Below are positions 5,732 to 31,524 of a stretch of 64,000 nucleotides of DNA, one piece after another. Below the pieces are notes generated by a model that did no database searches, was not told the origin of the DNA, and saw nothing but the letters and a program-made list of their open reading frames with translations. Both the position numbers and the translations under genes were made by a program. Position 1 is the stretch's first letter. The number at the start of each line of letters is the position of its first letter. Source of the DNA: Blastocystis sp. Blastoise (taxonomy: Eukaryota > Protista > Bigyra: Opalinata); contig JBBPEB010000025.1 in assembly GCA_039096225.1 (NCBI GenBank), positions 62,001 through 126,000 of the forward strand, given 5' to 3'.

Positions 5732-5732
5732 A

Positions 5733-5852
5733 TAATTCTTCCGTTCTTCGAACTGCAGAAGGGGGTATGCAAACCCCGCATAGAGTCTGCGCGACGCGCG
5801 CAGCCATAAGCGGGGAAGACATCCCCCCTTTTTGTTCTCGACGGAAGAATTA
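5733..5852. repeat. GC-rich imperfect terminal palindrome/hairpin (left)
   Basis: Nested pairs TAATTCTTCCGT/ACGGAAGAATTA, AAGGGGGTATG/CATCCCCCCTT, CCCCGC/GCGGGG and CTGCGCG/CGCGCAG around an ACG loop. Confidence 0.9.
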
Positions 5853-6455
5853 ATAACATTTCTGAAGTAAAATAACCATGGGAGTGTAGGGTAGTGTGTG
5901 TGTGTATTTATTTTTTCCCATGTTTATTTATTTTTAATTTATTTGTGTTCCGATTCCAACGTGAAACGTAAAGTGATCAAGGAGAAACTCATAGTAATCA
6001 TAAAAGAAATAAAATACACAGTCCAACCCTCCCCTTTACAGAGAATATTCATGGAAAATGACTCCATCGTTGGTAAAGTGAGTAAAATAATCACGGGAAT
6101 ACAGAAAGAAATACGAAAAGAAGCACAGAATGTGCTAAATAAACACACACCCCGACCCTCCCTTTATATAGAGAAAAGATGAAATGGATGGTTCTATCTA
6201 AAAAGAAATAATAAAAATAATCACGGGAATATATAAAAATAAAAATGTATGTATAGTGATCAATAAATAATATAAAAAGTCATGATAATCATAAAAAAAT
6301 TTATATAAAAAGAGTAAAGTGATCAAGGTATGTATTTATAGTGGGTGAAAGAAAAGCTGGTGGTGGTGTGGTCTTGTAAAAAGATGTACCCACCACCACG
6401 ATTATAACGAGAGACTTTTGGAAACATGAGCGACCGATATGGAAAAATATAAATT

Positions 6456-6493
6456 TTCTAGAACATTCTAGAACATTCTCGAAACTTCTAGAA
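6456..6493. promoter_or_regulatory. Heat-shock-element array (8 alternating nGAAn units) at the inner edge of the left TIR
   Basis: TTCtaGAAcaTTCtaGAAcaTTCtcGAAacTTCtaGAA. Confidence 0.8.
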
Positions 6494-6780: not shown

Positions 6781-8271
6781 CTAATGTTTTCTACGTTTAT
6801 TTCTTAATTTTTTATTTTTTGAAATACGTCTTTTTCTACGTAATCCATTACCTTCTTCGAGATCATAAAATACCTCACCATCATCTTCATCAAATGATTG
6901 AAATTCATCGTCTTCGTTTTTATTTCTTTTATTATTATTTACAAGAGTGACATTTTCTACTGGATTGGGAATCGGGGCTACAGGTGTAATATTTGGAGTG
7001 AAATTATTCGTGACTGCTTGAGACATTGGAACAGTATCAGGTAAAGGAACAGTAGGATCATTCATAAGAGGAATTAAATTTGGAGGATTTGAATCTTCAA
7101 TAGTAATATTATGAATATTTTCTTGTGTTAGAGTATCAGGAGTAGATGAAGAAGTTGGTATAACATTATTATTTGCTTCTATTGGATTTTTTGTTTGTGG
7201 TATTTCTTCCTCTGGATTCTTACCAAATAAAAATCCAGAAAAAGTATTGTATAAATTATTTACACCACTAACAACAGAGTTTGCAACTTTTTTAACACCA
7301 TTAACAATTGGTGTTCCTACATTTGTTGCAGTATTAACAACTTTATTAACAAATGTAGGGTTTTCTGCATAGGGAATATAATTTTTATGAAATGTTGTTG
7401 CTTGATTATCTAAAGATACCTTTTTGTTAAGTCTTTGTTCTTTAGTATCATTGCCTGACATATGAGCAAATCTAAAATAGTTATCAGCTAATATTTTATT
7501 CTTTTTCTTAGCTTCATTATCATTAGTTAATTTCCAATTATCATATAAATTATTTCTATCACTTACAAGTTTTCCTTTAATATCATTGAATCCTTCTTGT
7601 GGATCAACATTAATATCTCTCCACCAATTCTTGAGATCTTTGAATTTATTTGCACCATAATCAACAGCATTACTTATTCCATGAGTGATGTTATTAATAC
7701 CTCCAGTTAATTTATCAGACACATTGTATACATCACTTACAGTGTGATAAATATTAGAAAATAAATTACCACCTCTAGAATATAAGTAACCATCACGATC
7801 TCTTTTAGTAAAATCAATAGCACTATCAATTGTACGAGGATTTAATAATCTAGAATATTTAGAATAATCAGACATATGATTTTGTTTCATATAAGGTAAG
7901 ACATAATCATGAGCATAAATAAGTTTTCTTGTAAAGTTCTTTGGAATTCTACCATCAGGTAACAACCCAGATCCTTCATCTATTGGTTCAGTTTCTTCTG
8001 ATTCTTCTAATGAACTTTGTATAACATCTTGTCTGGTTTCTGACAAATATGAATAGAATGGATTTGACGTTGCTCTATTAACCATATTACTTTCTATTCG
8101 CTTAACAGCAGCTAAAGAATTAGGAGCAATAGAATAATTAATTGGATGACGTTCTTCTCCATCAGGAATAGATCCTGGAACAATATAATTTCGATATTCA
8201 TGACCAGTAGCACGATGATTTACGCCTACTAATCCTTTATTTGAAACATTTAAACGAGCACTTTGTATCAT
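6781..8271 (-). CDS. Viral protein, putative virion core/structural precursor (496 aa)
   Basis: Long intronless ORF with GxG/GG motifs (EGSGL, RGGNL, EGNGL) and a basic C-terminal tail after the last GxG. Confidence 0.7.
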   Translation of the reverse strand: MIQSARLNVSNKGLVGVNHRATGHEYRNYIVPGSIPDGEERHPINYSIAPNSLAAVKRIESNMVNRATSNPFYSYLSETRQDVIQSSLEESEETEPIDEGSGLLPDGRIPKNFTRKLIYAHDYVLPYMKQNHMSDYSKYSRLLNPRTIDSAIDFTKRDRDGYLYSRGGNLFSNIYHTVSDVYNVSDKLTGGINNITHGISNAVDYGANKFKDLKNWWRDINVDPQEGFNDIKGKLVSDRNNLYDNWKLTNDNEAKKKNKILADNYFRFAHMSGNDTKEQRLNKKVSLDNQATTFHKNYIPYAENPTFVNKVVNTATNVGTPIVNGVKKVANSVVSGVNNLYNTFSGFLFGKNPEEEIPQTKNPIEANNNVIPTSSSTPDTLTQENIHNITIEDSNPPNLIPLMNDPTVPLPDTVPMSQAVTNNFTPNITPVAPIPNPVENVTLVNNNKRNKNEDDEFQSFDEDDGEVFYDLEEGNGLRRKRRISKNKKLRNKRRKH

Positions 8272-9574: not shown

Positions 9575-9650
9575 TATTTATTGTATTAAATTAAAAATAA
9601 TTATATAACAAAACAAATAATTAATTATGAAATAATAAAAATTAAAATAA

Positions 9651-10741: not shown

Positions 10742-11779
10742 TTAATGAAAAGAAGGATAACCAGAATAATGCTTTTTATTTAAATAAGGATTAAAAATGC
10801 GTCGTTGACTATCTTGTATGATTTGATCTTGTATGATTTGTAAGATGGATTCTTTAGGTTTATCTTTTTCATCTCGTTCAATACCTTTCAATGAGACTTC
10901 TTCTTCAATAGGTAAAAACTTCTTCATTTTCTTTTCATATGTAGATATATGTTCATTAGGACGTTTAATACTACTACCTGATACTTCACCTTGTTCTTCT
11001 CGTTTCTCTTTTTCACTATCTTCTTCTGTCCATTTCCTTTTCTTTACCATCTTATATACATTCTGTTTACTACCACAATCAGGATTAGTCCATATTGTTA
11101 AATCATCACTACCTTGTTTCAACATAAAGAATTGATGTGGATCATTCATTAATTCTTCATCTGTAAGAATTTCATTTAGATTCGATGGCATAATCTTTAA
11201 TTTATCTGGTAAGAATCCAGGATCACGTTTTAAGATTTGACTATTAATAAAGAAATGAGATACTTGACTTAATATAGATTGATTGGTAACATCTGTATGA
11301 CTTTGAAGACATATAATAGCATTCTGTTTATAATGACGACCTTTAGATAATATAGATACAATCAATTGTTTGGTTTGTCTAGATAATGGATAGATATCAT
11401 CCAATACAATAAAATTATGTTCTGGTAATTTATATGTATTGACTAATTCATCAACAGTTTTAATCTTTTTAAATTTATCATCTACAGAATCATACCATTT
11501 ATAATCAATTCCAGCATGTTCACAAATATCTTGAAAGGATGTATAACATTCATTCTTATTGGATGCATCAGGACAAATTACTGTGACTTGTTTATATTTA
11601 TTTTTAAGATCCATAGAACATAAGAGATTCACAGTTAAGAAAGATTTACCTGAGAATGTTCTTGCAATAATCAATATAAATTTTGATTCATATGTTTTAT
11701 GATGTGATTTTCCATATTTAAATTCTAAGACTCCACATCCTTTACGTGTTTCTTTTAATGGATTTATTTTATTCACCAT
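10742..11779 (-). CDS. A32-like (FtsK/HerA family) genome-packaging ATPase
   Basis: Walker A ILIIARTFSGKS, Walker B FIVLDD, and the GRH...ICLQS motif typical of A32 ATPases. Confidence 0.9.
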   Translation of the reverse strand: MVNKINPLKETRKGCGVLEFKYGKSHHKTYESKFILIIARTFSGKSFLTVNLLCSMDLKNKYKQVTVICPDASNKNECYTSFQDICEHAGIDYKWYDSVDDKFKKIKTVDELVNTYKLPEHNFIVLDDIYPLSRQTKQLIVSILSKGRHYKQNAIICLQSHTDVTNQSILSQVSHFFINSQILKRDPGFLPDKLKIMPSNLNEILTDEELMNDPHQFFMLKQGSDDLTIWTNPDCGSKQNVYKMVKKRKWTEEDSEKEKREEQGEVSGSSIKRPNEHISTYEKKMKKFLPIEEEVSLKGIERDEKDKPKESILQIIQDQIIQDSQRRIFNPYLNKKHYSGYPSFH

Positions 11780-12514: not shown

Positions 12515-12612
12515 TTTTATTAAATGAATTAATTATGAAATTATAAACAAAACAATATTTTTTTAGAATAATATAAAGTTGATACAAATAATAAAAATAT
12601 CAAATAAATAAA

Positions 12613-15506: not shown

Positions 15507-15576
15507 TTTTTTTAATAAAAAATATTAATAAATAAAATAAAATTAATATAAATTATAATTTAATAAATTAGAAAAT

Positions 15577-18507: not shown

Positions 18508-18574
18508 TTCTATGAAATGTTATAAAATATTAATAATAAATTTGTTTTGTTTATAAATAATTTAATTTTTAATA

Positions 18575-20371
18575 ATGCAATCAACAGGTTATTCAGATAA
18601 AGATTGTGAGGAATTCTTTACAAATTGTATAGATCAATTATTACATTGGAAGAAAATACAATTATCAACAAGTATAAATTGGAAGAAATGGATCAAGACA
18701 ATATGTAAGAAATTTCGTAATGAAGAACGAATTCAAATCGATGATATGGAAGAACCGTTCTTTTGTGTAGAAGTGTTAACAGATCCATTTCAATTTCAAA
18801 ATGTTATGCAACATAAACAAACAGAAGCTCCTGGACAACAAGGTGGATTATCCAATACTACTGTAGCTAATTATATGCAAATGATTACATATATAATGAA
18901 GAATATATCTATTTGTACAGATGATGAAGATATCATTAATTATAAAGCATTTACTCCACAAAATATAAAGAAATGGGAACATTTATGGGGTTCTTTACAA
19001 ATAGATGCTACTTATTCAAGACATTATGAAATCACTCAGAAAATTATTAATTGTGAAGCTGATTGGGGAGAAATCATTAATATCACCAAAAAGAATTATT
19101 TAGAGAATCCTAATGATTTATATTATGTGAATAGTTATTTATTAGTTTTAACTTATGATACATTATGTGCTCGTAATGATTATAATGATTGTGTAATCTA
19201 TACTCGTGGTCAACAAATTCCTTTATCGTTAAGAAGAACAACCAATTATATTGATTTAAATACTCTGACTATTCATGTGAATGATACAAAGAATCGATTT
19301 GAAATCGGTAAGAATGAATATCCTACTTATCAATATTTATCAGAAGAATATTTGAATGTCTTAGCTAGATCCTTACGTTTATTTCCAAGACATTATTTAT
19401 TTGTTACTGAGAATGGTGGTAAAGTACGTGATTTGAAATTTGGTGATGAATATATAAAACCCCATTTAGGCTGGATTTATAAAACACAACAGAATAATTC
19501 TTTAATTAATGGTTGTGATATTATAAGACATTTATTTGCTCAATATTATTATAGATTATCAAGAGAAGCACAATTCCAACATAATGATTCAGAACACGAA
19601 TCTAAAGGTGTAGAACTCTTTGAAAATTCGATTATGAAGATGTTACATAGTCAATCAACACATATGGAAAATTATATATCTCCTTATTTATCTTCTCATT
19701 CAACTAAATTGCAAGATTTAGATAATAAAACAAGAACATTTCATATTGATATGAATAATATTACTTATACAAGAGAAATTAATCAATTAAATAAATTATT
19801 ATTTTTATGTAAACGATTTAATGATCGTATAGAACAATATGATGAAGACTATGAAGATGTATTTGGTAAAGAGAATTTCAATATGAAATCAGAATCGATA
19901 TTAAGTAGTCTAGAACAATATTCATCAGATAATGATACTATAATGATTACATTAAGATATTATAAAGATCTATTAAAGCATCATTATCCAGATAAAACAG
20001 ATTTAGAAAATGAATTACCTGTAGGATGTACATTAGAATCTGAAGAAGTTCCAGATGATTCTAGAGATCGTTATAATCGTTTTATACGTAATAAACAATT
20101 ATTACCTGATCATTTACATAATAATACAACGGATTCAGAATTAACGAATACTCAAGCATCTCTTATGCAACAAAATACTCAAGATGAAAACTCTACACCT
20201 ATAGTTATGAATAATTCAGATACTTATGCATTACGTAGTCTTTCTACTATGCCTCCTTTAGAACCTATTCATCGTGGTCATGGTTTATTGAAAAAACATA
20301 AAAGTAATGCATTCTTTAAAGTCAAAGTCCCTAAAAAACATTTTCATGGAATTCAATTTAAATTTTATTAA
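18575..20371 (+). CDS. Tyrosine recombinase 1 (598 aa, long C-terminal extension)
   Basis: Catalytic-like R (LCARNDY), K (DTKN), R (IIRHLFA) and H-x8-Y (MLHSQSTHMENY). Confidence 0.8.
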   Translation: MQSTGYSDKDCEEFFTNCIDQLLHWKKIQLSTSINWKKWIKTICKKFRNEERIQIDDMEEPFFCVEVLTDPFQFQNVMQHKQTEAPGQQGGLSNTTVANYMQMITYIMKNISICTDDEDIINYKAFTPQNIKKWEHLWGSLQIDATYSRHYEITQKIINCEADWGEIINITKKNYLENPNDLYYVNSYLLVLTYDTLCARNDYNDCVIYTRGQQIPLSLRRTTNYIDLNTLTIHVNDTKNRFEIGKNEYPTYQYLSEEYLNVLARSLRLFPRHYLFVTENGGKVRDLKFGDEYIKPHLGWIYKTQQNNSLINGCDIIRHLFAQYYYRLSREAQFQHNDSEHESKGVELFENSIMKMLHSQSTHMENYISPYLSSHSTKLQDLDNKTRTFHIDMNNITYTREINQLNKLLFLCKRFNDRIEQYDEDYEDVFGKENFNMKSESILSSLEQYSSDNDTIMITLRYYKDLLKHHYPDKTDLENELPVGCTLESEEVPDDSRDRYNRFIRNKQLLPDHLHNNTTDSELTNTQASLMQQNTQDENSTPIVMNNSDTYALRSLSTMPPLEPIHRGHGLLKKHKSNAFFKVKVPKKHFHGIQFKFY

Positions 20372-20424
20372 TTTTTTAAACATATAAACAAAACAACTTT
20401 TTATAGTAAAAAATAAATATATAT

Positions 20425-23400
20425 TTAATTTGGTATAGCATATAAAGTATTATCTATTAAAATTCGTTTTGTTGATGACGTATTATGATATTGATCTTCA
20501 CTATAAACAATTTCTTCTTTCTTAGATAAACAATTGGATAAACAGAATAAATCTGTATCTACACATTCATTATAAGTATTATCAATCATTAAACCACAAA
20601 TACCAATAGCATTCCCTCCCTTATAGAAATTTGAAGTATGTTTTCTATGAATATTCACAATATCTATAGAATTAAATGTATCTTTACTACTTAAACAACC
20701 AAATAAAGCATTTGTAAATTTATCTAAATCTTTCTTAATCGTAAATTGATTATTATTATTCACTTTCTTATAACTATTAAAAATATCTTCAATAGTAACT
20801 ACATTCAAATAATAAGGATCTATAGTAATATGGTTATCAACAAAAGATTTCAAATCATATCCTTCTGTACTACGATCAAAGAATCGTTTCTTACATTCAC
20901 TTATATGATATTCATTATCTAATTCATGCATATCTAATTGCATACTAGAATAGAAATAATTACTTACTAGATAACTAAAGATAATTGAACGATTCTGATA
21001 GAATTTATCAGATAAAGTATAATCCATTTCATAATGATTGGGTTTCAATCTCTTTTCTACTGTCTGTTTACGTTTCGGTAAATTATGATCTACATAATCT
21101 TCATATAAATTAGCATTACCAGGAGGGAAATAACGACAACATGATGGTAAGAAACAAACTCTTCTTTCAATAGGACCAGCATTCACAGCAGTAGGTTGGA
21201 TATTACTTGTCATAAATAAAGTACCCGTGAAATGAACTTTTGTAAATATATTACTGAATAATTTACGAGCACTAGCACCTTCTTTCTTTTCTGCTATTTC
21301 TTTAAAGACTTTAGAAGAGAATGGATTAAATGTTTTCTTTCTACCAGTAACATCTTCTTCTATTAATTCATTCATATAATACATAGTCTTATTAGACATA
21401 TCTACAATCTTAGGAGCTATAGATGTTTCTTCTAAATTATCTGGATTTACTATAATACATTGATTACTACCTACAATACGAGAAATTAAATCAGTTGTTA
21501 TTGTTTTACCATTACTACCTGTACTACCATATAATATATAAGAAACTGTTTTCTGAGTATTGACATAGAAAGCAGTGGTTAAGATACGTAACATAATACT
21601 TTCATATTTCTTATCGAATTCACAATATCTTGCAATATGTTGTTCAAATAATTGGATAATATCTTTCTGTTCATTATTAATATTCCAACTTACATTAAAT
21701 TCAGTATCAATTAATAAATCTTCAAACACCATATCTTCTTTATGATATGGTTGGATATAATATTGTCTAGGATCTTCTTCTGTTGATTCTTTTGGATATA
21801 AATAGCCAAGTTGTGTATAGATAACACGTTCTTTATGAACCATATACGTATCTAAATATTCTTTATAAGATTTACCATAAGTCTTCAAATAACGATTCAA
21901 CCATTCTTTATAATGATATTCATTAGTAACAGAAGCAGACATTATTTTATCAACTATTTTTTGATGTTGTTCATTCTCTTTGGAATATAATCTTGATAAT
22001 TTGAATTTCTCTACAATCGATTTCATAAATGTAGTTATTTTGGTTTCAAAGAAATTAATATCATAATTATTCTTACAACGTCTTAAGATATTATATTCAT
22101 CAAATGTATATAAGATAAAATTATCTTTATCTAATATAATAGAAACAATTTCATTAAATTCTAATAATTGAAATAACATAACTAATGTTTGTGAATCTAC
22201 AAGATTAAAGGATTGAATACATTCTAAAATAGACATAAATATGAAATCATTATCATCATCTTTATTAAATAATTTATTATCCATTAATATCTTCAAAATA
22301 TAATTATTCGATAAATGAGTAGGATCAACTTGTATATGATTCCATGTAGATTCAATTACATCATCACTTCGATCATGACCATAACGTAATGAATAATTTT
22401 TAAATAATTCTAATCCTCTTGTTGTATTACAAATCTGTTTTGCTGCACAACATAATTTATACCAAGTATTATGAGATTCAAAATAATTCATATCTTCAAT
22501 AGAACCAATCAATAATAAATATCGTTCTAATAAAGCTTCTTTAGATGCTGTAGTATCCAATATAGTATCTGTAGAAATCAACATAGGAATATCTTTAATA
22601 TCTTGTATAGAACATAATATAGTACGTGAACAATTATTTAATCTTGCATAATAACGTTTATAACGTGAATATTGTTTTAATTTATAAAAAATAATAGGAT
22701 TAATAATATCACTTATAATATCATCTTCATTCTTATAATTCAATAATGTTTTGAAATAATAATGTTCATCGATTTCATCATCTATTTTCTTCCATGTTTT
22801 ATTGGTATATTCTTCATATAATTTATAAGTAGATGGAGAATTATCTTTACTACAACCAAGAAACATACAACCATTATTCTTTCTGGGTTTACCAATAACA
22901 TTATAATCAATGAATTCTTTTATATCTAAATTATATGTTTTACATAAATCAACCAATTTGGTATTCAGAATCATACTATTATATAAGAAAAATAAATAAT
23001 CACCATTTACAAACCAATTTGTATATATATGAATTCCCCATGAATAATGTATTTCATTATGAACTGTCTTCTTATTCACTTCTTTCTTTGTATACACAAG
23101 CGAAATAAATTCTTGATTATAATAATGAATACAATGATTACATATTTCTTCTATAAATTCATGAATAAAAGAATCTGTTAGAAAAGAAAAATCATTTGAT
23201 ATTTGGTGATAATCTAAATCAAACCATAATCTTCTATAATTAGTTGATGTATTACAAGGAGTACAATCAATATAATGTAATAATTCTTTTGGATTTTGAT
23301 AATTAGTAAACAGACTTTTATAAAATGGTAATGGATTTGGTATAATAATTTCACTATGATTATCTTTTGAATTATCATGATTAAAGGAACCAAAAGTATA

Positions 23401-23427
23401 AACAAAATGAATTTGTGAATTTTCCAT
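20425..23427 (-). CDS. AEP primase-polymerase + PriCT-2 + SF3 (D5-like) helicase
   Basis: LWFDLDY, WGIHIY, PriCT-2-like NTWYKL..GLELFKNYS, Walker A YGSTGSNGKT, Walker B YYMNE, motif C FMTSN, Arg finger IERRV. Likely ATG at 23427 (the track start at 23475 is TTG). Confidence 0.9.
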   Translation of the reverse strand: MENSQIHFVYTFGSFNHDNSKDNHSEIIIPNPLPFYKSLFTNYQNPKELLHYIDCTPCNTSTNYRRLWFDLDYHQISNDFSFLTDSFIHEFIEEICNHCIHYYNQEFISLVYTKKEVNKKTVHNEIHYSWGIHIYTNWFVNGDYLFFLYNSMILNTKLVDLCKTYNLDIKEFIDYNVIGKPRKNNGCMFLGCSKDNSPSTYKLYEEYTNKTWKKIDDEIDEHYYFKTLLNYKNEDDIISDIINPIIFYKLKQYSRYKRYYARLNNCSRTILCSIQDIKDIPMLISTDTILDTTASKEALLERYLLLIGSIEDMNYFESHNTWYKLCCAAKQICNTTRGLELFKNYSLRYGHDRSDDVIESTWNHIQVDPTHLSNNYILKILMDNKLFNKDDDNDFIFMSILECIQSFNLVDSQTLVMLFQLLEFNEIVSIILDKDNFILYTFDEYNILRRCKNNYDINFFETKITTFMKSIVEKFKLSRLYSKENEQHQKIVDKIMSASVTNEYHYKEWLNRYLKTYGKSYKEYLDTYMVHKERVIYTQLGYLYPKESTEEDPRQYYIQPYHKEDMVFEDLLIDTEFNVSWNINNEQKDIIQLFEQHIARYCEFDKKYESIMLRILTTAFYVNTQKTVSYILYGSTGSNGKTITTDLISRIVGSNQCIIVNPDNLEETSIAPKIVDMSNKTMYYMNELIEEDVTGRKKTFNPFSSKVFKEIAEKKEGASARKLFSNIFTKVHFTGTLFMTSNIQPTAVNAGPIERRVCFLPSCCRYFPPGNANLYEDYVDHNLPKRKQTVEKRLKPNHYEMDYTLSDKFYQNRSIIFSYLVSNYFYSSMQLDMHELDNEYHISECKKRFFDRSTEGYDLKSFVDNHITIDPYYLNVVTIEDIFNSYKKVNNNNQFTIKKDLDKFTNALFGCLSSKDTFNSIDIVNIHRKHTSNFYKGGNAIGICGLMIDNTYNECVDTDLFCLSNCLSKKEEIVYSEDQYHNTSSTKRILIDNTLYAIPN

Positions 23428-23513
23428 GATTATTTGACTTATAAATAATGAAAATAAATATGGCATAAAATTCAAAACAAATAATATATTAAAGATTCTA
23501 GAAGTCAGTTTTA

Positions 23514-23633
23514 GAAGCTTCTAGAACCTTCTAGAACATTCAAGAACATTCTAGAACATTCTATAATAGTAAATATTACTTTATATTTTTAAATGTTCTA
23601 GAACCTTCGAGAACCTTCGAGAACCTTCTAGAA
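23514..23633. promoter_or_regulatory. Two HSE arrays (10 units at 23514-23561; 8 units at 23596-23633) upstream of the primase-helicase
   Basis: Perfect 5-bp alternation of GAA and TTC. Confidence 0.8.
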
Positions 23634-23743
23634 CATCCTTTTTATACTTTAGTGTTTTAAATGTATATACAATAAACAAAACAATTTTCAATGATTTTTT
23701 ACAAGTTTATAAGTAAAAATAGAAAAATAAACAAGAAAAATAA

Positions 23744-24367
23744 TTAAATTTCAATTGGTTCTTGACTATTAATATATGTACATGAATGAGGCCATCCATT
23801 CTTATCATATAAAATACCATCCCAGAAATACATTTGTTTTGAAGGATCTCTTTTAATCTTGTTAATACTCTTAGCATGAACAACTTCATAAGAATAAACT
23901 TTACCTTTTTCATCATAAAGGAATCCATCTTCCATATGGAATTTCATAATATCAAAATCATCATCTTTAGAATTCGAATGTTCTTTAGAATCTTCAGAAC
24001 ATAAAATAGTAGTTCTATCACTTTCTAAAAGATCTTCAGTATTGATAATATCTTGAATATCTTGTTCTTCGTTAAGTTGTTGAGTATAAATATCAGCAGC
24101 GAATTCTTCATAATCTTCAAGACCTTTAATAACCGCGTTTATACGTTTTAAAGCTGATCTATAGTTTTCGACTTCGAAAGAAGCAAGACGTTCTTTAGAT
24201 TTTGCAATACCCAATAGATTCTTTTCTCTATTCAATTGAGACTGATGTAAATCAATATCACGAAGAACATTCTTATGAACTTCAACAGCCTTCTTAGAAT
24301 TCTTAAGAAGTTCCATACGAACAGTTTGAAGACATTTACGGGAATCAGCAGAAAGATTAAATTGCAT
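23744..24367 (-). CDS. Hypothetical viral coiled-coil protein (~207 aa)
   Basis: First in-frame ATG at 24367 (MQFNLS); 3' motif at 23675. Confidence 0.7.
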   Translation of the reverse strand: MQFNLSADSRKCLQTVRMELLKNSKKAVEVHKNVLRDIDLHQSQLNREKNLLGIAKSKERLASFEVENYRSALKRINAVIKGLEDYEEFAADIYTQQLNEEQDIQDIINTEDLLESDRTTILCSEDSKEHSNSKDDDFDIMKFHMEDGFLYDEKGKVYSYEVVHAKSINKIKRDPSKQMYFWDGILYDKNGWPHSCTYINSQEPIEI

Positions 24368-24478
24368 TATAATCGCGAATATCGTTACAGAGAGAAAATT
24401 TGTATTTATCAAAATGAAATAAATAATACATTTAAATGGAATATTAAATATTCTAGGAGACAGTGTAGAATCTCTATG

Positions 24479-24496
24479 GAATGTTCTAGAAGGTTC
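24479..24496. promoter_or_regulatory. HSE (4 units)
   Basis: GAAtgTTCtaGAAggTTC. Confidence 0.65.
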
Positions 24497-24501
24497 ATTT
24501 G

Positions 24502-24649
24502 ATTGGCTAATTTTGTCGACTTAGCATTTTTTATTTGTGTTTCGATGACGAGTATAGTCGGCATCTGTAATTTGATTGGATAAAAAAATTAGTAAAACAC
24601 AATTAGACGATGACGACGATGTGTCATACGAAATAAGTTATTTTATTGG
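24502..24649. promoter_or_regulatory. Three inverted CCAAT boxes interleaved with TGACG half-sites in a divergent promoter
   Basis: ATTGG at 24502, 24575 and 24645; GATGACGA containing TGACG at 24546 and 24611. Confidence 0.45.
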
Positions 24650-24765
24650 CTTATTTTCCAGCTGGAAGCAATAGGCTTTTGTTAGCAACTGAAATGAAGA
24701 ACTGTACACTAAAAATAGTATATTTAATATATTGTATAAAAATACTTTTGAAGGTTTAAATAATC

Positions 24766-25293
24766 ATGGAAATTCCTGATAGTCTTTCTGCCAGTTTATC
24801 CCCTTTCGGTCAAGCCATGATATCCCCCTTGTTGAATCCATTTGAAAATAGTGTTTCTGAAAATCCTATGGCTTTACCCAATGATAATGATTTCTGTTTT
24901 AATTCGCGTGACGAAATCATGTTTGAAGATCCACCTCAAGAAATTCATCCAATCAATGATGTTTACGTATCTAAAAATCCAGATAGATATCATTCGGTTA
25001 ACAATCAACCAATACAATTTCAAGATCAAGTAAATACAAATCCTGATAAGCAAGCATTATTATTTACAAATGAGGAGTTAACAAATATATCCAGTCAATT
25101 CGAATCTTTATTTCAAACTATTGAAACAGCTGATAATATATTAAATGGTATTTATTGTACTGTTGATCATTTAAAAACAAAGATTGAAAGTCAGAAACAA
25201 GATTTGAAACAGATTCATGATGATTCTAAAGAAATTGTTTCATTATTATCCGAATATTCTATTCCTTCTATGTCTGAAATATTTGATCATTAA
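24766..25293 (+). CDS. Hypothetical viral protein (175 aa; acidic/Pro-rich N-terminus, coiled-coil C-terminus)
   Basis: ATG-initiated ORF; 3' motif at 25316. Confidence 0.75.
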   Translation: MEIPDSLSASLSPFGQAMISPLLNPFENSVSENPMALPNDNDFCFNSRDEIMFEDPPQEIHPINDVYVSKNPDRYHSVNNQPIQFQDQVNTNPDKQALLFTNEELTNISSQFESLFQTIETADNILNGIYCTVDHLKTKIESQKQDLKQIHDDSKEIVSLLSEYSIPSMSEIFDH

Positions 25294-25488
25294 TTTATTT
25301 ATTTAATTAATTATTTTGTTTTGTTTATTTTTTTTTAATTTAATTTCACAAAGTTTAAATGGAAAATAGAATAGTTTCAAATAGAATTCTTGAATGGTCT
25401 AATGGATCTATTAAAGAAATATGTAACTACAGTATCATGGTTCGATTCCGTTAAAATGTTTCCATTAGATTATTCAAGTGTTCTTTTT

Positions 25489-25536
25489 TTCTAGAACCTT
25501 CTCGAACATTCTAGAACCTTCTAGAACCTTCTCGAA
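25489..25536. promoter_or_regulatory. HSE array (10 units) upstream of the SSB-like gene
   Basis: TTCtaGAAccTTCtcGAAcaTTCtaGAAccTTCtaGAAccTTCtcGAA. Confidence 0.8.
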
Positions 25537-25612
25537 AATTGATTCATTTGAAAAGAATATCGTAAAATATTAGTATTAAAATACTTATATTTTTACTAAA
25601 TACTTAACTAAA

Positions 25613-26206
25613 ATGTCTTCAACTGAATTTAAGAAACCTGCTATTCTTGATACTTCTAACTTTAATTTACAATGGGATGACACCAAAGAAAATGCTGTTC
25701 TTTTAAATAATAATCATCGTGTATGTATTTCTACTGATGCTACACCATGTTTATTTGGTTATATTGTTACACGTGATAAATGGACTTTATTAACAATTGA
25801 AGATGATAATCAAGTATTCTTAACTGCTTATAAAGAACTTTATCGTAAATTATGTGAATTATGTCCTGATGGTGATATTGTTAATTTTGTACGTATGGAT
25901 AATGGTAAATATAAGATTACAATTAAAGTACCTATTAATGCATCGAAGAATGTTACTATTGATATCACTGATAAAAGAGATAAGAAGATTAATATCGGTA
26001 AAGATCCTAAGTTAACTTACGAAGAAATACGTGAAAAGTATATTCCACCAAATACGTTATGTAAAGTATTATTTACAATACATGGTATTCATCGTTATAA
26101 TAACAAGTATTATATTGGTTTATATGCTCGTTCTATTAAAGTCATCGATAAATCTACGAAGAATACTAATAGTAATGATACTATTATTGATTTAACTAAT
26201 TTATAA
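25613..26206 (+). CDS. Putative single-stranded DNA-binding protein (NCLDV / T7 gp2.5-like OB fold)
   Basis: C-terminal IPPNTLCKVLFTIHGIHRYNNKYYIGLYARSIKV pattern resembles the NCLDV SSB beta strands; 197 aa. Confidence 0.55.
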   Translation: MSSTEFKKPAILDTSNFNLQWDDTKENAVLLNNNHRVCISTDATPCLFGYIVTRDKWTLLTIEDDNQVFLTAYKELYRKLCELCPDGDIVNFVRMDNGKYKITIKVPINASKNVTIDITDKRDKKINIGKDPKLTYEEIREKYIPPNTLCKVLFTIHGIHRYNNKYYIGLYARSIKVIDKSTKNTNSNDTIIDLTNL

Positions 26207-26280
26207 ATTTTTAATGTTAAATTTATTTTTTATTAATATATTTGTTTTGTTTATAAATAATTTTATAATTGAAATAAAAA

Positions 26281-27909
26281 ATGCAAAGTTGTATCTTAGG
26301 AATGCCAAGTCCTGGTACTTTTGGTATGAATTTAATTTCAACTGGAAAAGAATATAGGCGATATAATACACAACCATTACATAAAATGGATCAATATAAT
26401 CCAATATTTCATGAAATAGGTCCAAATTCATCTATGCCTGTGTCTACTTTAGAAAGTAAAGAAATACATGATGGCAAAGAAGATGATTATGTAGATCGTT
26501 CTAAAACATTTGGTAAAGATGCTGTTCCACAAGGAAATGGTGCTTTAATTCGTGCTAGAGCAGCAGGTAAAGGTGTAATGAAAGCAGCTGGTCCAGAAGA
26601 AGATAAAATAGATGGTGAAGATCGTCAATATAAAGTATTAAATCCATGTAAACCAAGACGTAAATCTGGTAGAGGAATTATTCCAAATAAATCAGAAATC
26701 AATAAATTAGAGAATAATCAAGGTTCTGGTATTGGTGATGCAATTAAAAATAAAGTAAAAGATATGTATCAACGAAATGTATTAGATATAAGAGATGCTA
26801 TTGTAGATAAAAAAGCTAATAGAAAAGCTCGTGATGCATTAGCTATTTTAGCTCAATATGTTGGTGATGGTCATCATGATCTTGATGATGAATTCAAAAG
26901 ATTCTATGAACATAAAATAAAACGTGGTGGAAAGATTCCTATATCTGTTGCTTCAGCAATTATGAATGCAATTAAAAATAAGAAAATGATTAAGAATCCA
27001 AAATTAAGAAGAATGTTAAGACCTTCAATTATACCAAAATATATAGATTTAGATTCAGCTCAAAGTGGTGATGGTATATTAAGAGTTAAAAGAGGTGGTG
27101 GATTCTGGGATGGAGTTATGAACTATGCACCAGCTCTTTTAGGTGTAGTTGATAAAGGTATGGATTCTTTTGCTAAAGGTAGAAAAGCTTATTATGATAC
27201 ACATTTGGCACAACAGTCAAGTGAATTAAATGATATGGAATTTGAAATGGAAAAATTAAAACGTCAACAAGCATTAAATGAAATGAAAAAACAAATAGGT
27301 TCAGGAAATACTATAAATAAGATGTTTGAAGGATATTATGATGTAGCTGATGAAATGCAAGATGCTATTGATGAAGATGATAGATTACATCCACAACCCG
27401 TTGTTCAACCTCCACCACCTCCACAACAACAAGTTGCTAGACATCCTCAACCTCAACCTCCTCAACCTTATAAACCAATGTCTCGTGATGAACAAAGTTA
27501 TCCTTATAAGATTTATGGTTTCCCTCAAAATGATAAAGAGAAAGTCGATAGAAAATGGAAAGAAGATGAAAGGGATAAACGAATAGCTGCAAGAAGAGCT
27601 AAACGTAGAGGTTATGGTGGTCGAGTTAAATTAAGTAAAGAAGAATTCTTAGAACGAATGAGAAGAGGAAAAGAAGCTAAAAAGAAAAAAGGTGGTGATT
27701 TACCTCCATTAGTAACAGCTTATACAGATTTTGTAATACCTGCACAAGTAGCTCAAAGGAAACGTAAAGTAGCTAAGAATGATTTAAAACAATTACAAAT
27801 TATAAAACAGAAGATGGATAATAATGAAATATTAGATAGAGGTGAGCAAATGTTTTGGAAAGAAAAGAAGTATATGTTATCAAAAAACTCAGGGGAGGGG
27901 ATCTGGTAA
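26281..27909 (+). CDS. Basic GxG-rich virion core precursor (542 aa)
   Basis: About 11 GxG/GG motifs (QGNGA, AGKGV, SGRGI, QGSGI, RGGKI, SGDGI, RGGGF, IGSGN, YGGRV, KGGDL, SGEGI); overlaps the protease ORF. Confidence 0.7.
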   Translation: MQSCILGMPSPGTFGMNLISTGKEYRRYNTQPLHKMDQYNPIFHEIGPNSSMPVSTLESKEIHDGKEDDYVDRSKTFGKDAVPQGNGALIRARAAGKGVMKAAGPEEDKIDGEDRQYKVLNPCKPRRKSGRGIIPNKSEINKLENNQGSGIGDAIKNKVKDMYQRNVLDIRDAIVDKKANRKARDALAILAQYVGDGHHDLDDEFKRFYEHKIKRGGKIPISVASAIMNAIKNKKMIKNPKLRRMLRPSIIPKYIDLDSAQSGDGILRVKRGGGFWDGVMNYAPALLGVVDKGMDSFAKGRKAYYDTHLAQQSSELNDMEFEMEKLKRQQALNEMKKQIGSGNTINKMFEGYYDVADEMQDAIDEDDRLHPQPVVQPPPPPQQQVARHPQPQPPQPYKPMSRDEQSYPYKIYGFPQNDKEKVDRKWKEDERDKRIAARRAKRRGYGGRVKLSKEEFLERMRRGKEAKKKKGGDLPPLVTAYTDFVIPAQVAQRKRKVAKNDLKQLQIIKQKMDNNEILDRGEQMFWKEKKYMLSKNSGEGIW

Positions 27910-28001
27910 AGAGTAAAGATGAAAAACTTATTCAAAATTCAATGAATTGTGATAATCCTATTATATCTGATAAAACTCGTCATGTTACTCCTAGATCCCC
28001 T
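27882..28001 (+). other. Predicted -1 programmed ribosomal frameshift signal
   Basis: A_AAA_AAC at 27882-27888 in the correct phase; 7-nt spacer; stem AGGGGATCTGG (27896-27906) / CTAGATCCCCT (27991-28001), extended by GAGTAA/TTACTC. Confidence 0.75.
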
Positions 28002-28475
28002 GATAATTTCAAACAAACTCTATCTCAATATTGTAATATACCCAATTCTTTAATATCTCAATTATATAATTATGCTTATTTAAATAAACCTACCTCTTCT
28101 GTTGCTTGTGATCGTGCTGAAAATGTTATGAAACAATTAAATAAAACGAATTCTCAATCTTATAATTATTATAATAGTTATGATGATTTTGAACAAAATA
28201 TAGATCAAGATCAAACTAAATTTAATATGATCTTCCATGAAAGTCCTAGTGATCCTTATAATGGTCATTTTGAAGCTGTTATTTATAATGGTAATAAAAA
28301 TATAGAACACTATTCATCATTAGGAAATAAACCTACTTTTTCAAAATCATTTATTCAAAATCATAATATTCAATATAATCCTATTCAACACCAAAAAACT
28401 ACAAGTAATGCAAATGGTTGCTTTTATTATTCTTTACTTTATTTACTTTCTAATGGAAATCTTATGCCTTGTTAA
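27888..28475 (+). CDS. Adenain/Ulp1-like cysteine protease (in the -1 frame of the upstream ORF; first own ATG at 27942)
   Basis: NGHFEAV...IEHYSSLG...QYNPIQHQKTTSNANGCFYY matches the Polinton protease pattern GxHW..YFDSFG..YN..QxQ..S..CG.YC. Confidence 0.8.
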   Translation, partial: LRGGDLVKSKDEKLIQNSMNCDNPIISDKTRHVTPRSPDNFKQTLSQYCNIPNSLISQLYNYAYLNKPTSSVACDRAENVMKQLNKTNSQSYNYYNSYDDFEQNIDQDQTKFNMIFHESPSDPYNGHFEAVIYNGNKNIEHYSSLGNKPTFSKSFIQNHNIQYNPIQHQKTTSNANGCFYYSLLYLLSNGNLMPC

Positions 28476-28479
28476 AACC

Positions 28480-28497
28480 TTCTAGAATATTCTAGAA
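28480..28497. promoter_or_regulatory. HSE (4 units)
   Basis: TTCtaGAAtaTTCtaGAA. Confidence 0.65.
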
Positions 28498-28561
28498 TCT
28501 CTAATTTATTATATTAATATTTTGTATAATTAATTTGTTTTGTTTAATATTTAATACTATA

Positions 28562-28717
28562 ATGACAAAGAAACGATTTGGCAATTACTACTTAGATCGT
28601 AGTGCAGAAATTTTAGAGAATGTAAATGAAATACTGTCAGTTATTGAAATTGTTCTTATTATTATATATATTTTACTTTACTTTTATATGTCCAAGAAAC
28701 ATTCTAGAACATTCTAG
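28562..28717 (+). CDS. Small single-TM protein (51 aa)
   Basis: ATG at 28562; hydrophobic ILSVIEIVLIIIYILLYFYM; HSE upstream and 3' motif downstream. Confidence 0.5.
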   Translation: MTKKRFGNYYLDRSAEILENVNEILSVIEIVLIIIYILLYFYMSKKHSRTF

Positions 28718-28724
28718 AACATTC
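28702..28724. promoter_or_regulatory. HSE (5 units)
   Basis: TTCtaGAAcaTTCtaGAAcaTTC. Confidence 0.7.
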
Positions 28725-28819
28725 ATTTTGAACTGGCTCTATTTGTAGAATCTTTAATTTATTATATTAGTATTTTATATAATTAATTTGTTTTGTTTAA
28801 TCATTGGTTAATTTAAATA

Positions 28820-29194
28820 ATGAACAAGAAATATCTTAGTTATTCTTATTTTTGTCGTGTGATGAAGAATCTAAAAGAAGAAGGAATTAAATCTAAAAAG
28901 AATGAAATAGCGAATCTATTAGAACAATTTTTAAATAACAATAACAACAAAAATCTTAGTGATTTACAACTAAGTTATTGTAGAAATATGCTACTTTATA
29001 TAGATGATCCTGTGATTCATCAACGTCTTGAAATGCTATTGGATAAACAATATATGAAGAATGAGAATCAATATCAAGATGATAAGAATCTTATTCAACC
29101 CAATAATATGTTTATGCCTACTATGAAAAGTAATCAACAACAAAATCAATATCAAAATAATAATAATACTCTATCTTTCTTACCTTTTAATTAA
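28820..29194 (+). CDS. Hypothetical viral protein (124 aa; N/Q-rich tail)
   Basis: ATG-initiated ORF; variant 3' motif TTGTTTAGTT at 29218. Confidence 0.65.
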   Translation: MNKKYLSYSYFCRVMKNLKEEGIKSKKNEIANLLEQFLNNNNNKNLSDLQLSYCRNMLLYIDDPVIHQRLEMLLDKQYMKNENQYQDDKNLIQPNNMFMPTMKSNQQQNQYQNNNNTLSFLPFN

Positions 29195-29267
29195 TTTTTA
29201 TATCCTTTTATTACTAGTTGTTTAGTTATATTCAAATTTAAAACAAAACAAGCATGAAAACATAAAA

Positions 29268-30203
29268 TTATTCAATTAATTTTTTAAATAAATTATTATT
29301 TTCTAAAGATACATAAGAATTAATATGTGTATAATCATTATGACATAAAGCAGAAGCAGAATTTTCTATATCTTGGAATGTATTGGTTGTAGTTGTAGCA
29401 TATAATTTTCTTAATGCATTAATGGTCAATTTTGGATGGATTTGTTTTAAATGCTTATTCACAAACCAATCAAATGCTTTAGTAGTAAATCCAGTTCGTA
29501 CAGAAGATTCAAATATAAATTTACGATTTGGATTTCTTTTTAAGAGTAATTCTAGATCTTCAATCAATTCTTTTGGTGCATCTAATTGAATTGTAGAGTA
29601 TTTACCAGCAGTTTTATAATCATTTAATAGAATAGAACCAGTATGTTTCTCTTTATCATAAACAATATAATTCTTATGAATAGCTGGATCAATAGTATCT
29701 TCTGGAGTTAGAATGAATAATTGAGCATAATCAGCACGAGCAGGAGGAAGATAGGAGTAAAAATCTAATATTAATCGTAATGGATTATAATTTTCTAATT
29801 TATCGTGATATTCATGTAAATATGGAGTCGTAATACCATCTTTAATAAGATCTTGAATTAAAGTACGTTTCTTATTATCCAGATATTTTTCATACATTGC
29901 ATTAATAATCACATAAAATTCACACCATTTATTTAAAATACCTTCTTTATTTAATGAAGAAACATTACGTATAATAAATAATATCAATTCACATAACGAT
30001 TTCATTGGACTAATTTTGATTTTACGTTCATTTACCATATAATCCATGAATGAATAAGGATTCTTTAAGAATTCTGAGAACTTTTTAAATGGTAATGGGA
30101 AAATATATAAATTGAAATAATTGGTTAAACGTTTTTTCCAAATATCAGAATAATTTGAATTTTGTATAACCAAAAGATACTTGTCATAATTTGTATTTTT
30201 CAT
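29268..30203 (-). CDS. Tyrosine recombinase 2 (311 aa)
   Basis: LPPARADY (R), DYKTAGKY (K), NALRKLYAT (R) and LCHNDYTHINSY (H-x8-Y). Confidence 0.85.
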   Translation of the reverse strand: MKNTNYDKYLLVIQNSNYSDIWKKRLTNYFNLYIFPLPFKKFSEFLKNPYSFMDYMVNERKIKISPMKSLCELILFIIRNVSSLNKEGILNKWCEFYVIINAMYEKYLDNKKRTLIQDLIKDGITTPYLHEYHDKLENYNPLRLILDFYSYLPPARADYAQLFILTPEDTIDPAIHKNYIVYDKEKHTGSILLNDYKTAGKYSTIQLDAPKELIEDLELLLKRNPNRKFIFESSVRTGFTTKAFDWFVNKHLKQIHPKLTINALRKLYATTTTNTFQDIENSASALCHNDYTHINSYVSLENNNLFKKLIE

Positions 30204-30291: not shown

Positions 30292-30339
30292 TTCTCGAAT
30301 GTTCTAGAAGTTTCGAGAATGTTCTAGAATGTTCTAGAA
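30292..30339. promoter_or_regulatory. HSE array (10 units) upstream of tyrosine recombinase 2, at the inner edge of the right TIR
   Basis: TTCtcGAAtgTTCtaGAAgtTTCgaGAAtgTTCtaGAAtgTTCtaGAA. Confidence 0.8.
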
Positions 30340-31063
30340 AATTTATATTTTTCCATATCGGTCGCTCATGTTTCCAAAAGTCTCTCGTTATAATCGTGGT
30401 GGTGGGTACATCTTTTTACAAGACCACACCACCACCAGCTTTTCTTTCACCCACTATAAATACATACCTTGATCACTTTACTCTTTTTATATAAATTTTT
30501 TTATGATTATCATGACTTTTTATATTATTTATTGATCACTATACATACATTTTTATTTTTATATATTCCCGTGATTATTTTTATTATTTCTTTTTAGATA
30601 GAACCATCCATTTCATCTTTTCTCTATATAAAGGGAGGGTCGGGGTGTGTGTTTATTTAGCACATTCTGTGCTTCTTTTCGTATTTCTTTCTGTATTCCC
30701 GTGATTATTTTACTCACTTTACCAACGATGGAGTCATTTTCCATGAATATTCTCTGTAAAGGGGAGGGTTGGACTGTGTATTTTATTTCTTTTATGATTA
30801 CTATGAGTTTCTCCTTGATCACTTTACGTTTCACGTTGGAATCGGAACACAAATAAATTAAAAATAAATAAACATGGGAAAAAATAAATACACACACACA
30901 CTACCCTACACTCCCATGGTTATTTTACTTCAGAAATGTTATTAATTCTTCCGTCGAGAACAAAAAGGGGGGATGTCTTCCCCGCTTATGGCTGCGCGCG
31001 TCGCGCAGACTCTATGCGGGGTTTGCATACCCCCTTCTGCAGTTCGAAGAACGGAAGAATTAT
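30302..31063 (-). repeat. Right terminal inverted repeat (762 bp)
   Basis: Reverse complement of 5732-6493. Confidence 0.95.
30943..31062. repeat. GC-rich imperfect terminal palindrome/hairpin (right)
   Basis: Mirror of 5733-5852. Confidence 0.9.
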
Positions 31064-31065
31064 TA
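31064..31065. repeat. TA target-site duplication, right copy
   Basis: ...GGAAGAATTAT-TA-ATTTGTCAG. Confidence 0.75.
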
Positions 31066-31524
31066 ATTTGTCAGAAACTTTTTATTGATACATTTTATGA
31101 AGTCTTTAATGGAAGGTTAGAAAGAAATTATTGTATGGAGATGACAACTATAATGACTTGTATAAAGTCTTCTGTGACACGATTATGGTCTATTACGTCC
31201 CTAGCTAATTATGTGAAAGAAAAATTTCCTGAATCATTTGAAATTTATAAAGAAACTATTAATCTATGTTTAACTATTAACCCTACAAGCATCAAGAGTG
31301 AAACTTCTTTCAGTATGCTTAGAAGAGTAAAAGATTGCTTTCAAACTCGTATGAAAGGTGCACTTCTGCAATCATATATGACTTGTACATGCAATAAAGA
31401 CCTACTATCATCAATAGAATCATCTACAGTCGTCGAAAAATATATGAAACAACTAAATTTACCTTCTTTAAGTAATTCAATTATCAATAAAGTGTTGAAG
31501 ACTGAGATTATTTACAATTCGTAG
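31066..31524 (+). pseudogene. hAT transposase, 3' part (C-terminal dimerisation domain with catalytic E)
   Basis: FPESFEIYK...LTINPTSIKSETSFSMLRRVKDCFQTRM corresponds to the hATC P.TS...ER.FS motif; in frame with the sequence left of the insertion. Confidence 0.85.

Follow-up and report, generated by a model that had tools for sequence, protein, structure and literature searches.

The 64,000-nt stretch of the Blastocystis sp. Blastoise genome analysed here (positions 62,001 to 126,000 of contig JBBPEB010000025.1, assembly GCA_039096225.1; hereafter the window, whose own numbering is used throughout) contains a virus-like element of 25,336 bp at 5730-31065, the limits of which are set by 764-nt terminal inverted repeats (TIRs) that are 100 % perfect. 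Judged by its make-up at the sequence level, the element appears to be an endogenous virus of the Polinton-like virus or virophage type. It carries two genes for predicted tyrosine recombinases (YRs): YR1, of 598 amino acids (aa), directly downstream of the capsid and ATPase genes, and YR2, of 311 aa, whose start codon lies 98 nt element-inward of the right TIR (30302-31065). Both open reading frames (ORFs) are intact over the extents assigned in an initial annotation of this DNA, which had proposed that the two enzymes might share integration and excision between them.

YR1 and YR2 as paralogues of one recombinase family

Profile comparison indicates that YR1 and YR2 are anciently diverged paralogues of a single tyrosine-recombinase family. 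Alignment of the two family profiles with hhalign gives a probability of 98.8 % (E 6.3e-17, 285 columns) and lays YR1 24-374 on YR2 14-300 with every catalytic box in register; between the two single sequences, the best BLASTP segment joins the H-x8-Y boxes ENSIMKMLHSQSTHMENYIS and ENSASALCHNDYTHINSYVS at E 0.053. The catalytic set of Arg-I, Lys, Arg-II, His/Trp-III and nucleophile Tyr is complete in both families, as assigned by motif order and by hidden Markov model alignment to integrase 3nkh, not by residue superposition. The ARxDY motif reads ARNDY in YR1 (R200) and ARADY in YR2 (R156), and H-x8-Y is found in both proteins. That the two keep R, K, R, H-x8-Y and ARxDY had been noted in the initial annotation, and residue mapping and the family alignments bear it out.

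The two families were delineated separately. A HMMER scan with a two-sequence profile recovered 831 relatives of YR2 at E <= 0.001, and in a 67-sequence alignment of this family R156, K197 and R265 are invariant, with H288 and the Tyr at least 90 % conserved. The YR2 family profile matches integrase 3nkh in the PDB at E 4e-5, the RHxx and GHS boxes being aligned. Pfam Phage_integrase (PF00589) matches YR2 only below threshold, at 13.1 bits against a cut-off of 27.1 (E 0.084), and gives sub-threshold matches in 2 of 27 YR2-family relatives; a comparison of YR2 with PHROGs gave no match. For YR1, 163 homologues were found. Twelve aligned sequences share the motifs LCARNDY, IHVNDTKN, GCDxIRHLFAQ and MLHSQxTHMxNYI, the sole deviation seen by eye being LCCRNDY for LCARNDY in the sequence P0063. 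YR1 has no Pfam or PHROG match, and sequence searches of the PDB with it gave nothing relevant. A profile search in a word-indexed protein collection contributed no further names.

Structure prediction places both proteins in the two-domain YR fold, with a helical core-binding domain and a catalytic domain, although the predicted local distance difference test (pLDDT) score of the YR1 model is only 57. The alignment-based AlphaFold 2 model of YR2 reaches a pLDDT of 95.7. Foldseek ranks Cre first for YR2 among PDB entries (E 7.5e-4, TM 0.54), then XerA, lambda Int and Tn1549 Int, with the protelomerase TelA at rank 39 (E 0.065); VIA-align superposes 278 of the 311 YR2 residues on Cre (Z 12.6, root-mean-square deviation (rmsd) 4.6), and when only the catalytic domain is compared, equal scores of Z 13.0 are given to topoisomerase IB, XerA and XerH. 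When the YR1 model was compared with 48,161 chains by VIA-align, Cre was again best (Z 10.2, rmsd 5.4, 270 residues, model 17-376). Ten chains reach Z >= 8, and all of them are YRs, YR-like regulators or topoisomerase IB. Besides Cre, the YR1 matches comprise XerA (Z 9.5), an archaeal Xer (9.2), lambda Int (8.7) and XerH (8.6), two YR-like regulators, SroF at Z 8.9 along with MrpR at Z 8.4, and also variola topoisomerase IB (Z 8.5), Flp (6.2) and the protelomerase TelK (5.0). The comparison with Cre, Xer and protelomerases that had been called for at the outset thus returns a YR fold for both proteins, with Cre as the best match of each. The model portrays YR1 as a YR2-like two-domain core of ~380 aa to which an extension of ~220 aa has been joined, and on these models we predict both proteins to be site-specific recombinases.

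Among viral models, the best match of YR2 is an uncharacterised protein of Aureococcus anophagefferens virus (AaV; E 3e-11, TM 0.75). Further look-alikes are uncharacterised proteins of Pyramimonas orientalis virus, Tetraselmis virus 1 and Hokovirus, a 'Tyr recombinase domain' protein of the Heterosigma virus HaV01, and a protein of the Qinghai Lake virophage (E 6e-4). VLF-1 models match YR2 weakly (E 0.01-0.09).

The two proteins differ in how they have diverged. Between lineages, the YR1 core is 54-63 % identical, the YR1 extension 29-36 % and YR2 34-53 %, where the pairing of YR1 with YR2 rests on coincident contig sizes for 2 of the 4 lineages compared. The tree gives full support to a YR1 clade with a very long stem and short inner branches, and sets the YR2 subfamily apart in a supported clade of its own; with no root and so long a stem of YR1, it does not settle a sister relation. 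This pattern suggests an old duplication or capture, after which YR1 would have come under strong constraint.

Regulatory setting of the two genes

One regulatory feature of the element is a set of arrays resembling heat-shock elements (HSEs), built of perfectly phased TTCnnGAA units, up to 10-12 in each. A four-unit pattern, TTCnnGAAnnTTCnnGAA, has 21 matches in the window against 0.3 expected, and all of them lie within the element, at seven sites (Table 1). Of the ten units in the array upstream of YR2, eight fall within the TIR and are found again at the left end of the element. No array precedes YR1 or any morphogenesis gene (capsid, ATPase or core). The array is a class mark common to YR2 and the replication gene, not a peculiarity of YR2. 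The initial annotation had read the array as part of a pair of opposite regulatory signatures. It was right that YR2 is compact, adjoins the right TIR and has a 10-unit array, and the HSE asymmetry between the two genes stands; what has to be given up is the array as a mark special to YR2, since arrays are found at seven sites and before other genes too, the primase-helicase gene among them. As to what binds them, the arrays could be sites for heat-shock factor (HSF) or operators for an element-encoded protein.

The initial annotation had also located YR1 among the structural genes, without an HSE and with a tail in which a GxG motif is followed by basic residues, and this description is confirmed. 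YR1 ends in PIHRGHG|LLKKHK..., a G-x-G-[ILVM] site at residue 568 that resembles the end of the 496-aa protein, DLEEGNG|LRRKRR. For the G-x-G-[ILVM] motif, 12 occurrences were counted where per-protein shuffles predict 2.3, and all of them are in proteins of the morphogenesis block: five times in the 542-aa, twice each in the 496-aa and 345-aa proteins, once in YR1, and also in the ATPase and the protein likened to a major capsid protein (MCP). It was not found in YR2, the primase-helicase or the other proteins of the HSE class. Inspected by eye, 5 of 7 distinct YR1 sequences have C-terminal tails with comparable G-x-G sites, followed by a conserved peptide A-F-x-[KR]-x-[KR]-x-P. Together with a gene for an adenain-like protease, itself at the level of a lead, this tail suggests that YR1 undergoes the same processing as the core proteins and may hence reach the capsid.

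A third sequence signal concerns the 3' ends of genes. The motif TTGTTTTGTTT, which lies 33 nt before the YR1 ATG, has 28 matches against 5 expected. For 16 of the 20 genes of the element, among them YR2, the primase-helicase gene and the final gene of each run, its core, TGTTTTGTT, is placed 13-85 nt past a stop codon on the same strand, and this placement covers every one of the element's 16 exact copies (examples between 6700 and 29260 are 8302-8312, 9606-9616, 12545-12555, 20386-20396 and 29241-29251). YR1 and the 542-aa gene have no TGTTTTGTT on their own strand. The downstream element of the Blastocystis poly(A) signal is TGTTTGTT (PMC4159000), which TGTTTTGTT resembles while being one base longer. 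We had considered TTGTTTTGTTT as a late promoter of YR1 and the structural genes, and reject this because TGTTTTGTT follows stop codons, those of HSE-class genes included. With TTGTTTTGTTT better read as a 3'-end signal of the host type, no positive evidence of a late promoter is left for YR1. The host-type poly(A) signals imply nuclear, host-driven expression, and suggest that the element relies on the nuclear machinery of the host to produce and process its mRNAs.

Co-occurrence of YR1 and YR2 across copies

Proteins 98 % identical to YR1 are recorded at NCBI as 'hypothetical protein [Blastocystis sp. Blastoise]', and the genome of this organism holds ~18-21 copies of the element. A cluster look-up returned, from the same genome, 15 named YR2 accessions plus the window sequence and 21 YR1 cluster members. 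For 12 of the 15 listed YR1 accessions a YR2 accession lies 5-8 numbers off, and 7 of these 12 pairs also have matching locus tags 5-8 apart and contigs equal in size, the gene order in the copies being deduced from the order of accessions and locus tags. A second lineage in the same genome, represented by the YR1-like P0063 and the YR2-like P0125 (~40-58 % identical), is paired in 3 of 3 cases, 4-5 numbers apart. In metagenomes, the P0005 cluster of YR1 and the P0124 cluster of YR2 both top out at a contig of 21,800 bases, and the clusters of 621-628-aa YR1 proteins and the P0003 cluster of YR2 reach contigs of 23.0-24.1 kb. Judging from these records, related elements appear to retain YR1 and YR2 together. 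Searches for YR1- or YR2-related DNA loci in viral contigs, JGI metagenome contigs, prokaryote genome contigs and phage records found none.

Several copies, of both lineages, lie on one contig of 1.32 Mb (tags 003346, 003464/003468, 003480/003485 and 003510/003515), a clustering that suggests insertion hot spots or nested arrays.

Ends and insertion site of the element

At its outer end, each TIR has a GC-rich imperfect palindrome of 120 nt. As single-stranded DNA it folds at -34.2 kcal/mol (z -6.9), a value equalled in 0 of 200 shuffles, and its centre reads CTGCGCG-ACG-CGCGCAG against a genome background of ~25 % GC. The palindrome might serve as an origin, as a site of recombination or as an end that forms a hairpin. 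The 11-mer AATTCTTCCGT occurs exactly four times in the window, every copy at the element termini. Joining of TIR to TIR would by definition give a palindromic site with the AATTCTTCCGT copies as arms, and such a junction would be the site that a YR needs for inserting a circularised genome in a way that leaves a TIR-bounded copy.

Further inward, the TIRs contain iteron-like direct repeats (5866-6330 and its mirror in the right TIR): GTAAAGTGATCAAGG with two exact copies and two variants, AAAATAATCACGGGAATA with two copies and one variant, and a CCCTCCC-TTTA-AGAGA pair.

The element sits inside a transposase gene of the hAT type (2744-5729 / 31066-31524), Pfam placing DUF4371 upstream and the hAT dimerisation domain downstream. 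TA is present at both junctions, and the halves of the hAT ORF share a frame only when a single TA is counted, whether it belongs to the host or is duplicated. A longer target-site duplication was sought and rejected, as the 15-nt similarity of the flanks is not significant: 29 % of random host pairs score equally high. The interrupted gene has an apparent GTATGT...TAG mini-intron after 5530. The window as a whole is strongly AT-rich; ~2.7-31.5 kb is a gene-dense, intron-free block in the standard code with a GC content of ~27 %, and 3' of ~31.5 kb ORFs are sparse and GC is ~20 %.

Other genes of the element

The size of the element falls within the 15-40 kb of Polinton-type elements and it has TIRs; its packaging ATPase is assigned by phrog_2666, and its putative MCP and protease by ESM-Atlas look-alikes (score 0.96). 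The ESM-Atlas clusters closest to the 497-aa protein are viral, and members of some of them carry Sputnik_MCP or Capsid_NCLDV. Its 407-aa neighbour is 29 % identical to it by BLASTP (E 9e-43), and a tandem doubled major-capsid gene of this kind is unusual among small Polinton-like elements. The closest ESM-Atlas clusters of the 177-aa protease candidate carry Peptidase_C5, with 208 of 256 features shared; an H...GC order can be made out by eye, and Pfam gave no match. Both likenesses serve as leads. The 542-aa protein is a putative core or cement precursor and looks like a polyprotein of small core or cement proteins, and several further Gly- and Lys/Arg-rich proteins are encoded in the element. 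A Pfam scan showed neither a protein-primed polymerase nor an rve integrase in the element. The 70-nt spacer between the divergent MCP-like and 812-aa genes (15507-15576) is 100 % A/T, contains no HSE or TGTTTTGTT, and is possibly a bidirectional promoter of a third kind.

Table 1. Positions of the recombinase genes and other features of the element in window numbering
Feature	Position	Strand	Remarks
Left TIR	5730..6493	.	764 nt, 100 % complementary to 30302-31065
GC-rich terminal imperfect palindrome, 120 nt	5733..5852, mirror ~30943-31062	.	inverted AATTCTTCCGT copies at its borders
HSE-like array	6456-6493	.	TIR copy of the YR2 array, upstream of the acidic 55-aa ORF
Very acidic 55-aa ORF	6539-6706		adjoins the inner side of the left TIR, with the left HSE-array copy in front of it; mirrors the position of YR2 at the right end
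496-aa protein	6781..8271	-	tail EEGNG|LRRKRRISKNKK..., nearest parallel to the YR1 tail
Packaging ATPase	10742..11779	-	phrog_2666 (head and packaging), E 1.2e-10; weak Pfam FtsK and DEAD matches
Capsid-like gene 1, 407 aa	12613..13836	-	paralogue of the 497-aa gene
Capsid-like gene 2 (MCP-like), 497 aa	14013..15506	-	ESM-Atlas lead
TTGTTTTGTTT	18542..18552	+	ends 33 nt short of the YR1 ATG region; best taken as the poly(A) downstream element for the 140-aa gene ahead of it
YR1, 598 aa	18575..20371	+	core 1-380: R200, K239, D315xxR318, H358, Y367; extension 381-598
Primase-helicase-like replication gene, 1013 aa	20425..23466	-	phrog_1156 'DNA primase', E 2.6e-9; Walker-A-like GSTGSNGKT by eye
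HSE-like arrays, two	23509-23566, 23596-23633	.	upstream of the primase-helicase gene
HSE-like array	25489..25536	.	upstream of the 197-aa ORF
197-aa ORF	25613-26206		HSE-like array upstream
Gly-rich basic protein, 542 aa	26281..27909	+	44 Gly, five G-x-G-[ILVM] sites, several GG sites
Adenain-like cysteine protease candidate, 177 aa	27942..28475	+	ESM-Atlas look-alike
HSE-like arrays	28480-28497, 28702-28719	.	upstream of a 51-aa ORF and a 124-aa ORF
YR2, compact two-domain tyrosine recombinase, 311 aa	29268..30203	-	R156, K197, N262xxR265, H288, Y297
10-unit perfect HSE-like array	30292..30339	.	89 nt upstream of the YR2 ATG; within the TIR from 30302 on
Right TIR	30302..31065	.	764 nt

Proposed division of labour between the two recombinases

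We tentatively interpret the two recombinases as dividing their labour in time, YR2 excising the element and a packaged YR1 integrating it, a reading that we hold to be possible and would not yet call probable. Under stress, host factors acting through the HSE array would drive expression of YR2 from the provirus, together with the primase-helicase, and YR2 is predicted to cut the element out at its ends. YR1 would be made with the particle proteins and bears a processing-type tail; we predict that it enters the particle along with the DNA and, once in the next cell, acts on the genome ends by integrating them. Heat-shock control, the packaging of YR1 and the reaction catalysed by each enzyme are the parts of this scheme that we infer from sequence. 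We further envision, as a rather unlikely proposal when taken in full, a provirus transcribed by its host and inducible by stress that sets the direction of recombination by two dedicated YRs in place of an integrase and an Xis-type factor, with HSF driving excision and the capsid delivering a protease-processed enzyme that would insert the linear genome by its inverted ends.

A number of observations weigh against an excising YR2 and a packaged, integrating YR1. Neither protein reaches the cut-off of Pfam Phage_integrase, and the His of the HxxR box is replaced in both (D315-I-I-R318 in YR1, N262-A-L-R265 in YR2); some accepted members of the YR superfamily likewise have no HxxR His, for example topoisomerase IB, which has Lys. 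The pLDDT of the YR1 model, low overall, drops below 50 over 332-446, the region holding H358 and Y367. The G-x-G-[ILVM] motif was defined post hoc, after inspection of the proteins, and does not satisfy the strict adenovirus consensus; the MCP and protease assignments come from ESM-Atlas look-alikes, not from alignments. The binder of the arrays could be a protein of the element instead of host HSF, and the window has no host HSE-bearing gene for comparison. Strict co-conservation of the two genes is equally compatible with an obligate pair. Finally, no RNA run is among the sequencing runs listed with related DNA; the only such run is of unknown type and contained a fraction of 0.30 of the sampled words, its contigs being 90-99 % alike and covering 25610-26177, parts of 27057-28389, 28913-29118 and, in YR2, 29338-30018; this fragmentary run has no contig on 30108-31800, which spans the right TIR and the junction, and no joints, and is uninformative on expression or ends.

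The pairing just mentioned is the starting point of a different explanation, in which YR1 and YR2 form an obligate heteromeric pair of the XerC/XerD or VLF-1/INT-1 kind, taking different half-sites at the ends of the element and each exchanging one strand pair within shared reactions of integration and excision. Such a pair would fit two paralogues with full catalytic sets that occur together in 12 of the 15 and in all 3 of the listed copies, as well as in the metagenome lineages, and in bracoviruses excision is lost on knock-down of either VLF-1 or INT-1 (PMC3649998). The regulatory contexts differ, however, with an HSE array before YR2 and none before YR1; the divergence rates differ as well, the 220-aa extension with its processing-type tail is confined to YR1, and the termini show one type of word, AATTCTTCCGT, with no sign of two kinds of half-site. 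We consider a heteromeric pair somewhat doubtful on balance. It is unlikely, in our view, that YR2 acts as the sole integrase and excisase, with YR1 a late resolver that, in the manner of VLF-1 or a protelomerase, would convert concatemers, circle junctions or palindrome cruciforms to unit-length linear genomes for packaging. What speaks for this role is the strongly folding palindrome at each end, and also a linear TIR-bounded genome with a primase-helicase and no protein-primed polymerase seen, the ends of which would need a resolving step; the YR1 core is more conserved than YR2, it has an added C-terminal region, a trait of protelomerases too, and the gene follows the capsid and ATPase genes directly. 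On the other hand, TelK reaches only half the Z score of Cre for YR1 (5.0 versus 10.2), TelA stands at rank 39 for YR2, no evidence of hairpin ends was seen, and the integrated copy retains the whole palindrome instead of half of it. The protelomerase alternative raised in the initial annotation is accordingly weakened by the closer likeness to Cre and Xer, and kept alive by the 120-nt terminal palindromes.

The structural matches also raise the question of whether one of the two, more probably YR1, has ceased to recombine and is instead a regulator that binds DNA, a protein of the structure or core, or a relaxing enzyme of the topoisomerase IB type, as are MrpR and SroF or virion topoisomerases. 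SroF, MrpR and variola topoisomerase IB are among the best matches of YR1 (Z 8.9, 8.4 and 8.5), topoisomerase IB ties with Xer for the catalytic domain of YR2, and the replaced HxxR His in both proteins points the same way. We nevertheless find this very improbable, as R, K, R, H and Tyr are conserved in all aligned YR1 sequences and across the YR2 family, and the N-terminal domain is helical and of the Cre type in both, not of the topoisomerase IB type.

Comparison with known systems

Single YRs in Polinton-like viruses and virophages are already known (PMC4642659, PMC11296320). A literature search returned no paper joining 'two tyrosine recombinases' with 'virophage', and searches on Blastocystis with Polinton, tyrosine recombinase or major capsid protein returned, supplements excluded, only the PolB/rve MELD virus and unrelated work, leaving the element family undescribed within that scope. 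A Blastocystis genome paper mentions transposable elements in general, and the words 'recombinase' and 'Maverick' are absent from its accessible main text, supplements again excluded (PMC12129017). What is apparently new, then, is a multi-copy and seemingly recent Polinton-like provirus of Blastocystis with a conserved YR pair, early genes fronted by HSEs and host-type poly(A) signals. To our knowledge, the mechanism by which YRs insert and remove a TIR-bounded linear genome is not known, nor is the trigger of such proviruses where no giant virus is involved. Blastocystis, the commonest protist genus of the human gut, offers a tractable case for both: many near-identical copies occur in one genome of a culturable genus, relatives are found on complete-looking gut metagenome contigs of 22-24 kb, the two YRs have separable signatures, and unusually strong HSE arrays front the replication gene and YR2. 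If YR2 does excise and YR1 integrate, the element would represent a new answer to the control of directionality in site-specific recombination, an unusual viral separation of genome entry from genome exit, and a natural stress-inducible vector system for Blastocystis.

Among well-studied recombinases, Cre, lambda Int and Tn1549 Int have in common with YR1 and YR2 the two-domain C-clamp fold and the R-K-R-H-Y set, but identity to them is 8-15 % and the HxxR His is D or N in YR1 and YR2. TelK and TelA likewise have a YR-type catalytic domain, and palindromic ends such as those of the element are their kind of substrate; their matches (Z 5.0 to YR1 for TelK, E 0.065 to YR2 for TelA) are weaker than those of Cre and Xer. 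XerC and XerD resemble our pair in being two paralogous YRs of the same fold retained together. Xer proteins are similar in size and are chromosomal housekeeping enzymes; in contrast to them, one of our two, YR1, carries an extension of 220 aa and stands in another regulatory context than its partner.

Closer comparisons come from viruses. The Blastocystis MELD virus encodes a protein-primed PolB and a retroviral-type rve integrase (Starrett et al. 2021, PMC8502044). Both it and the present element are mid-size, linear, double-stranded DNA, virus-like and from Blastocystis datasets, whereas the element has a primase-helicase and two YRs instead of PolB and an rve integrase. OLV11-like YRs are described in Polinton-like viruses and virophages, with AaV named as a carrier, by Yutin et al. 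(2015, PMC4642659). Both they and YR2 are divergent YRs of ~300 aa near the end of a 20-40-kb element with an ATPase and an MCP, the latter putative in the Blastocystis element; one recombinase is described there for OLV11-like elements, and the Blastocystis element has two paralogues. We liken YR2 to this family by its structural look-alikes (AaV, Qinghai Lake virophage, HaV01), not by sequence comparison. The host also sets the element apart from OLV11-like elements, being an anaerobic gut stramenopile, as do its genes with host-type poly(A) signals.

The nearest parallel to the pair itself is found in bracoviruses and nudiviruses, where VLF-1 and INT-1 make up a pair of paralogous YRs, both of them virion proteins and both required for proviral excision (Burke et al. 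2013, PMC3649998). VLF-1/INT-1 and YR1/YR2 are alike in being paralogous, virus-encoded YRs of an endogenous DNA virus; they differ in that bracovirus segments have direct repeats and are packaged as circles, whereas the Blastocystis element has 764-nt TIRs, and the virus lineages are unrelated. In our analysis VLF-1 and INT-1 would offer the best precedent for a split between YR1 and YR2, and one that would fit a heteromeric pair equally well.

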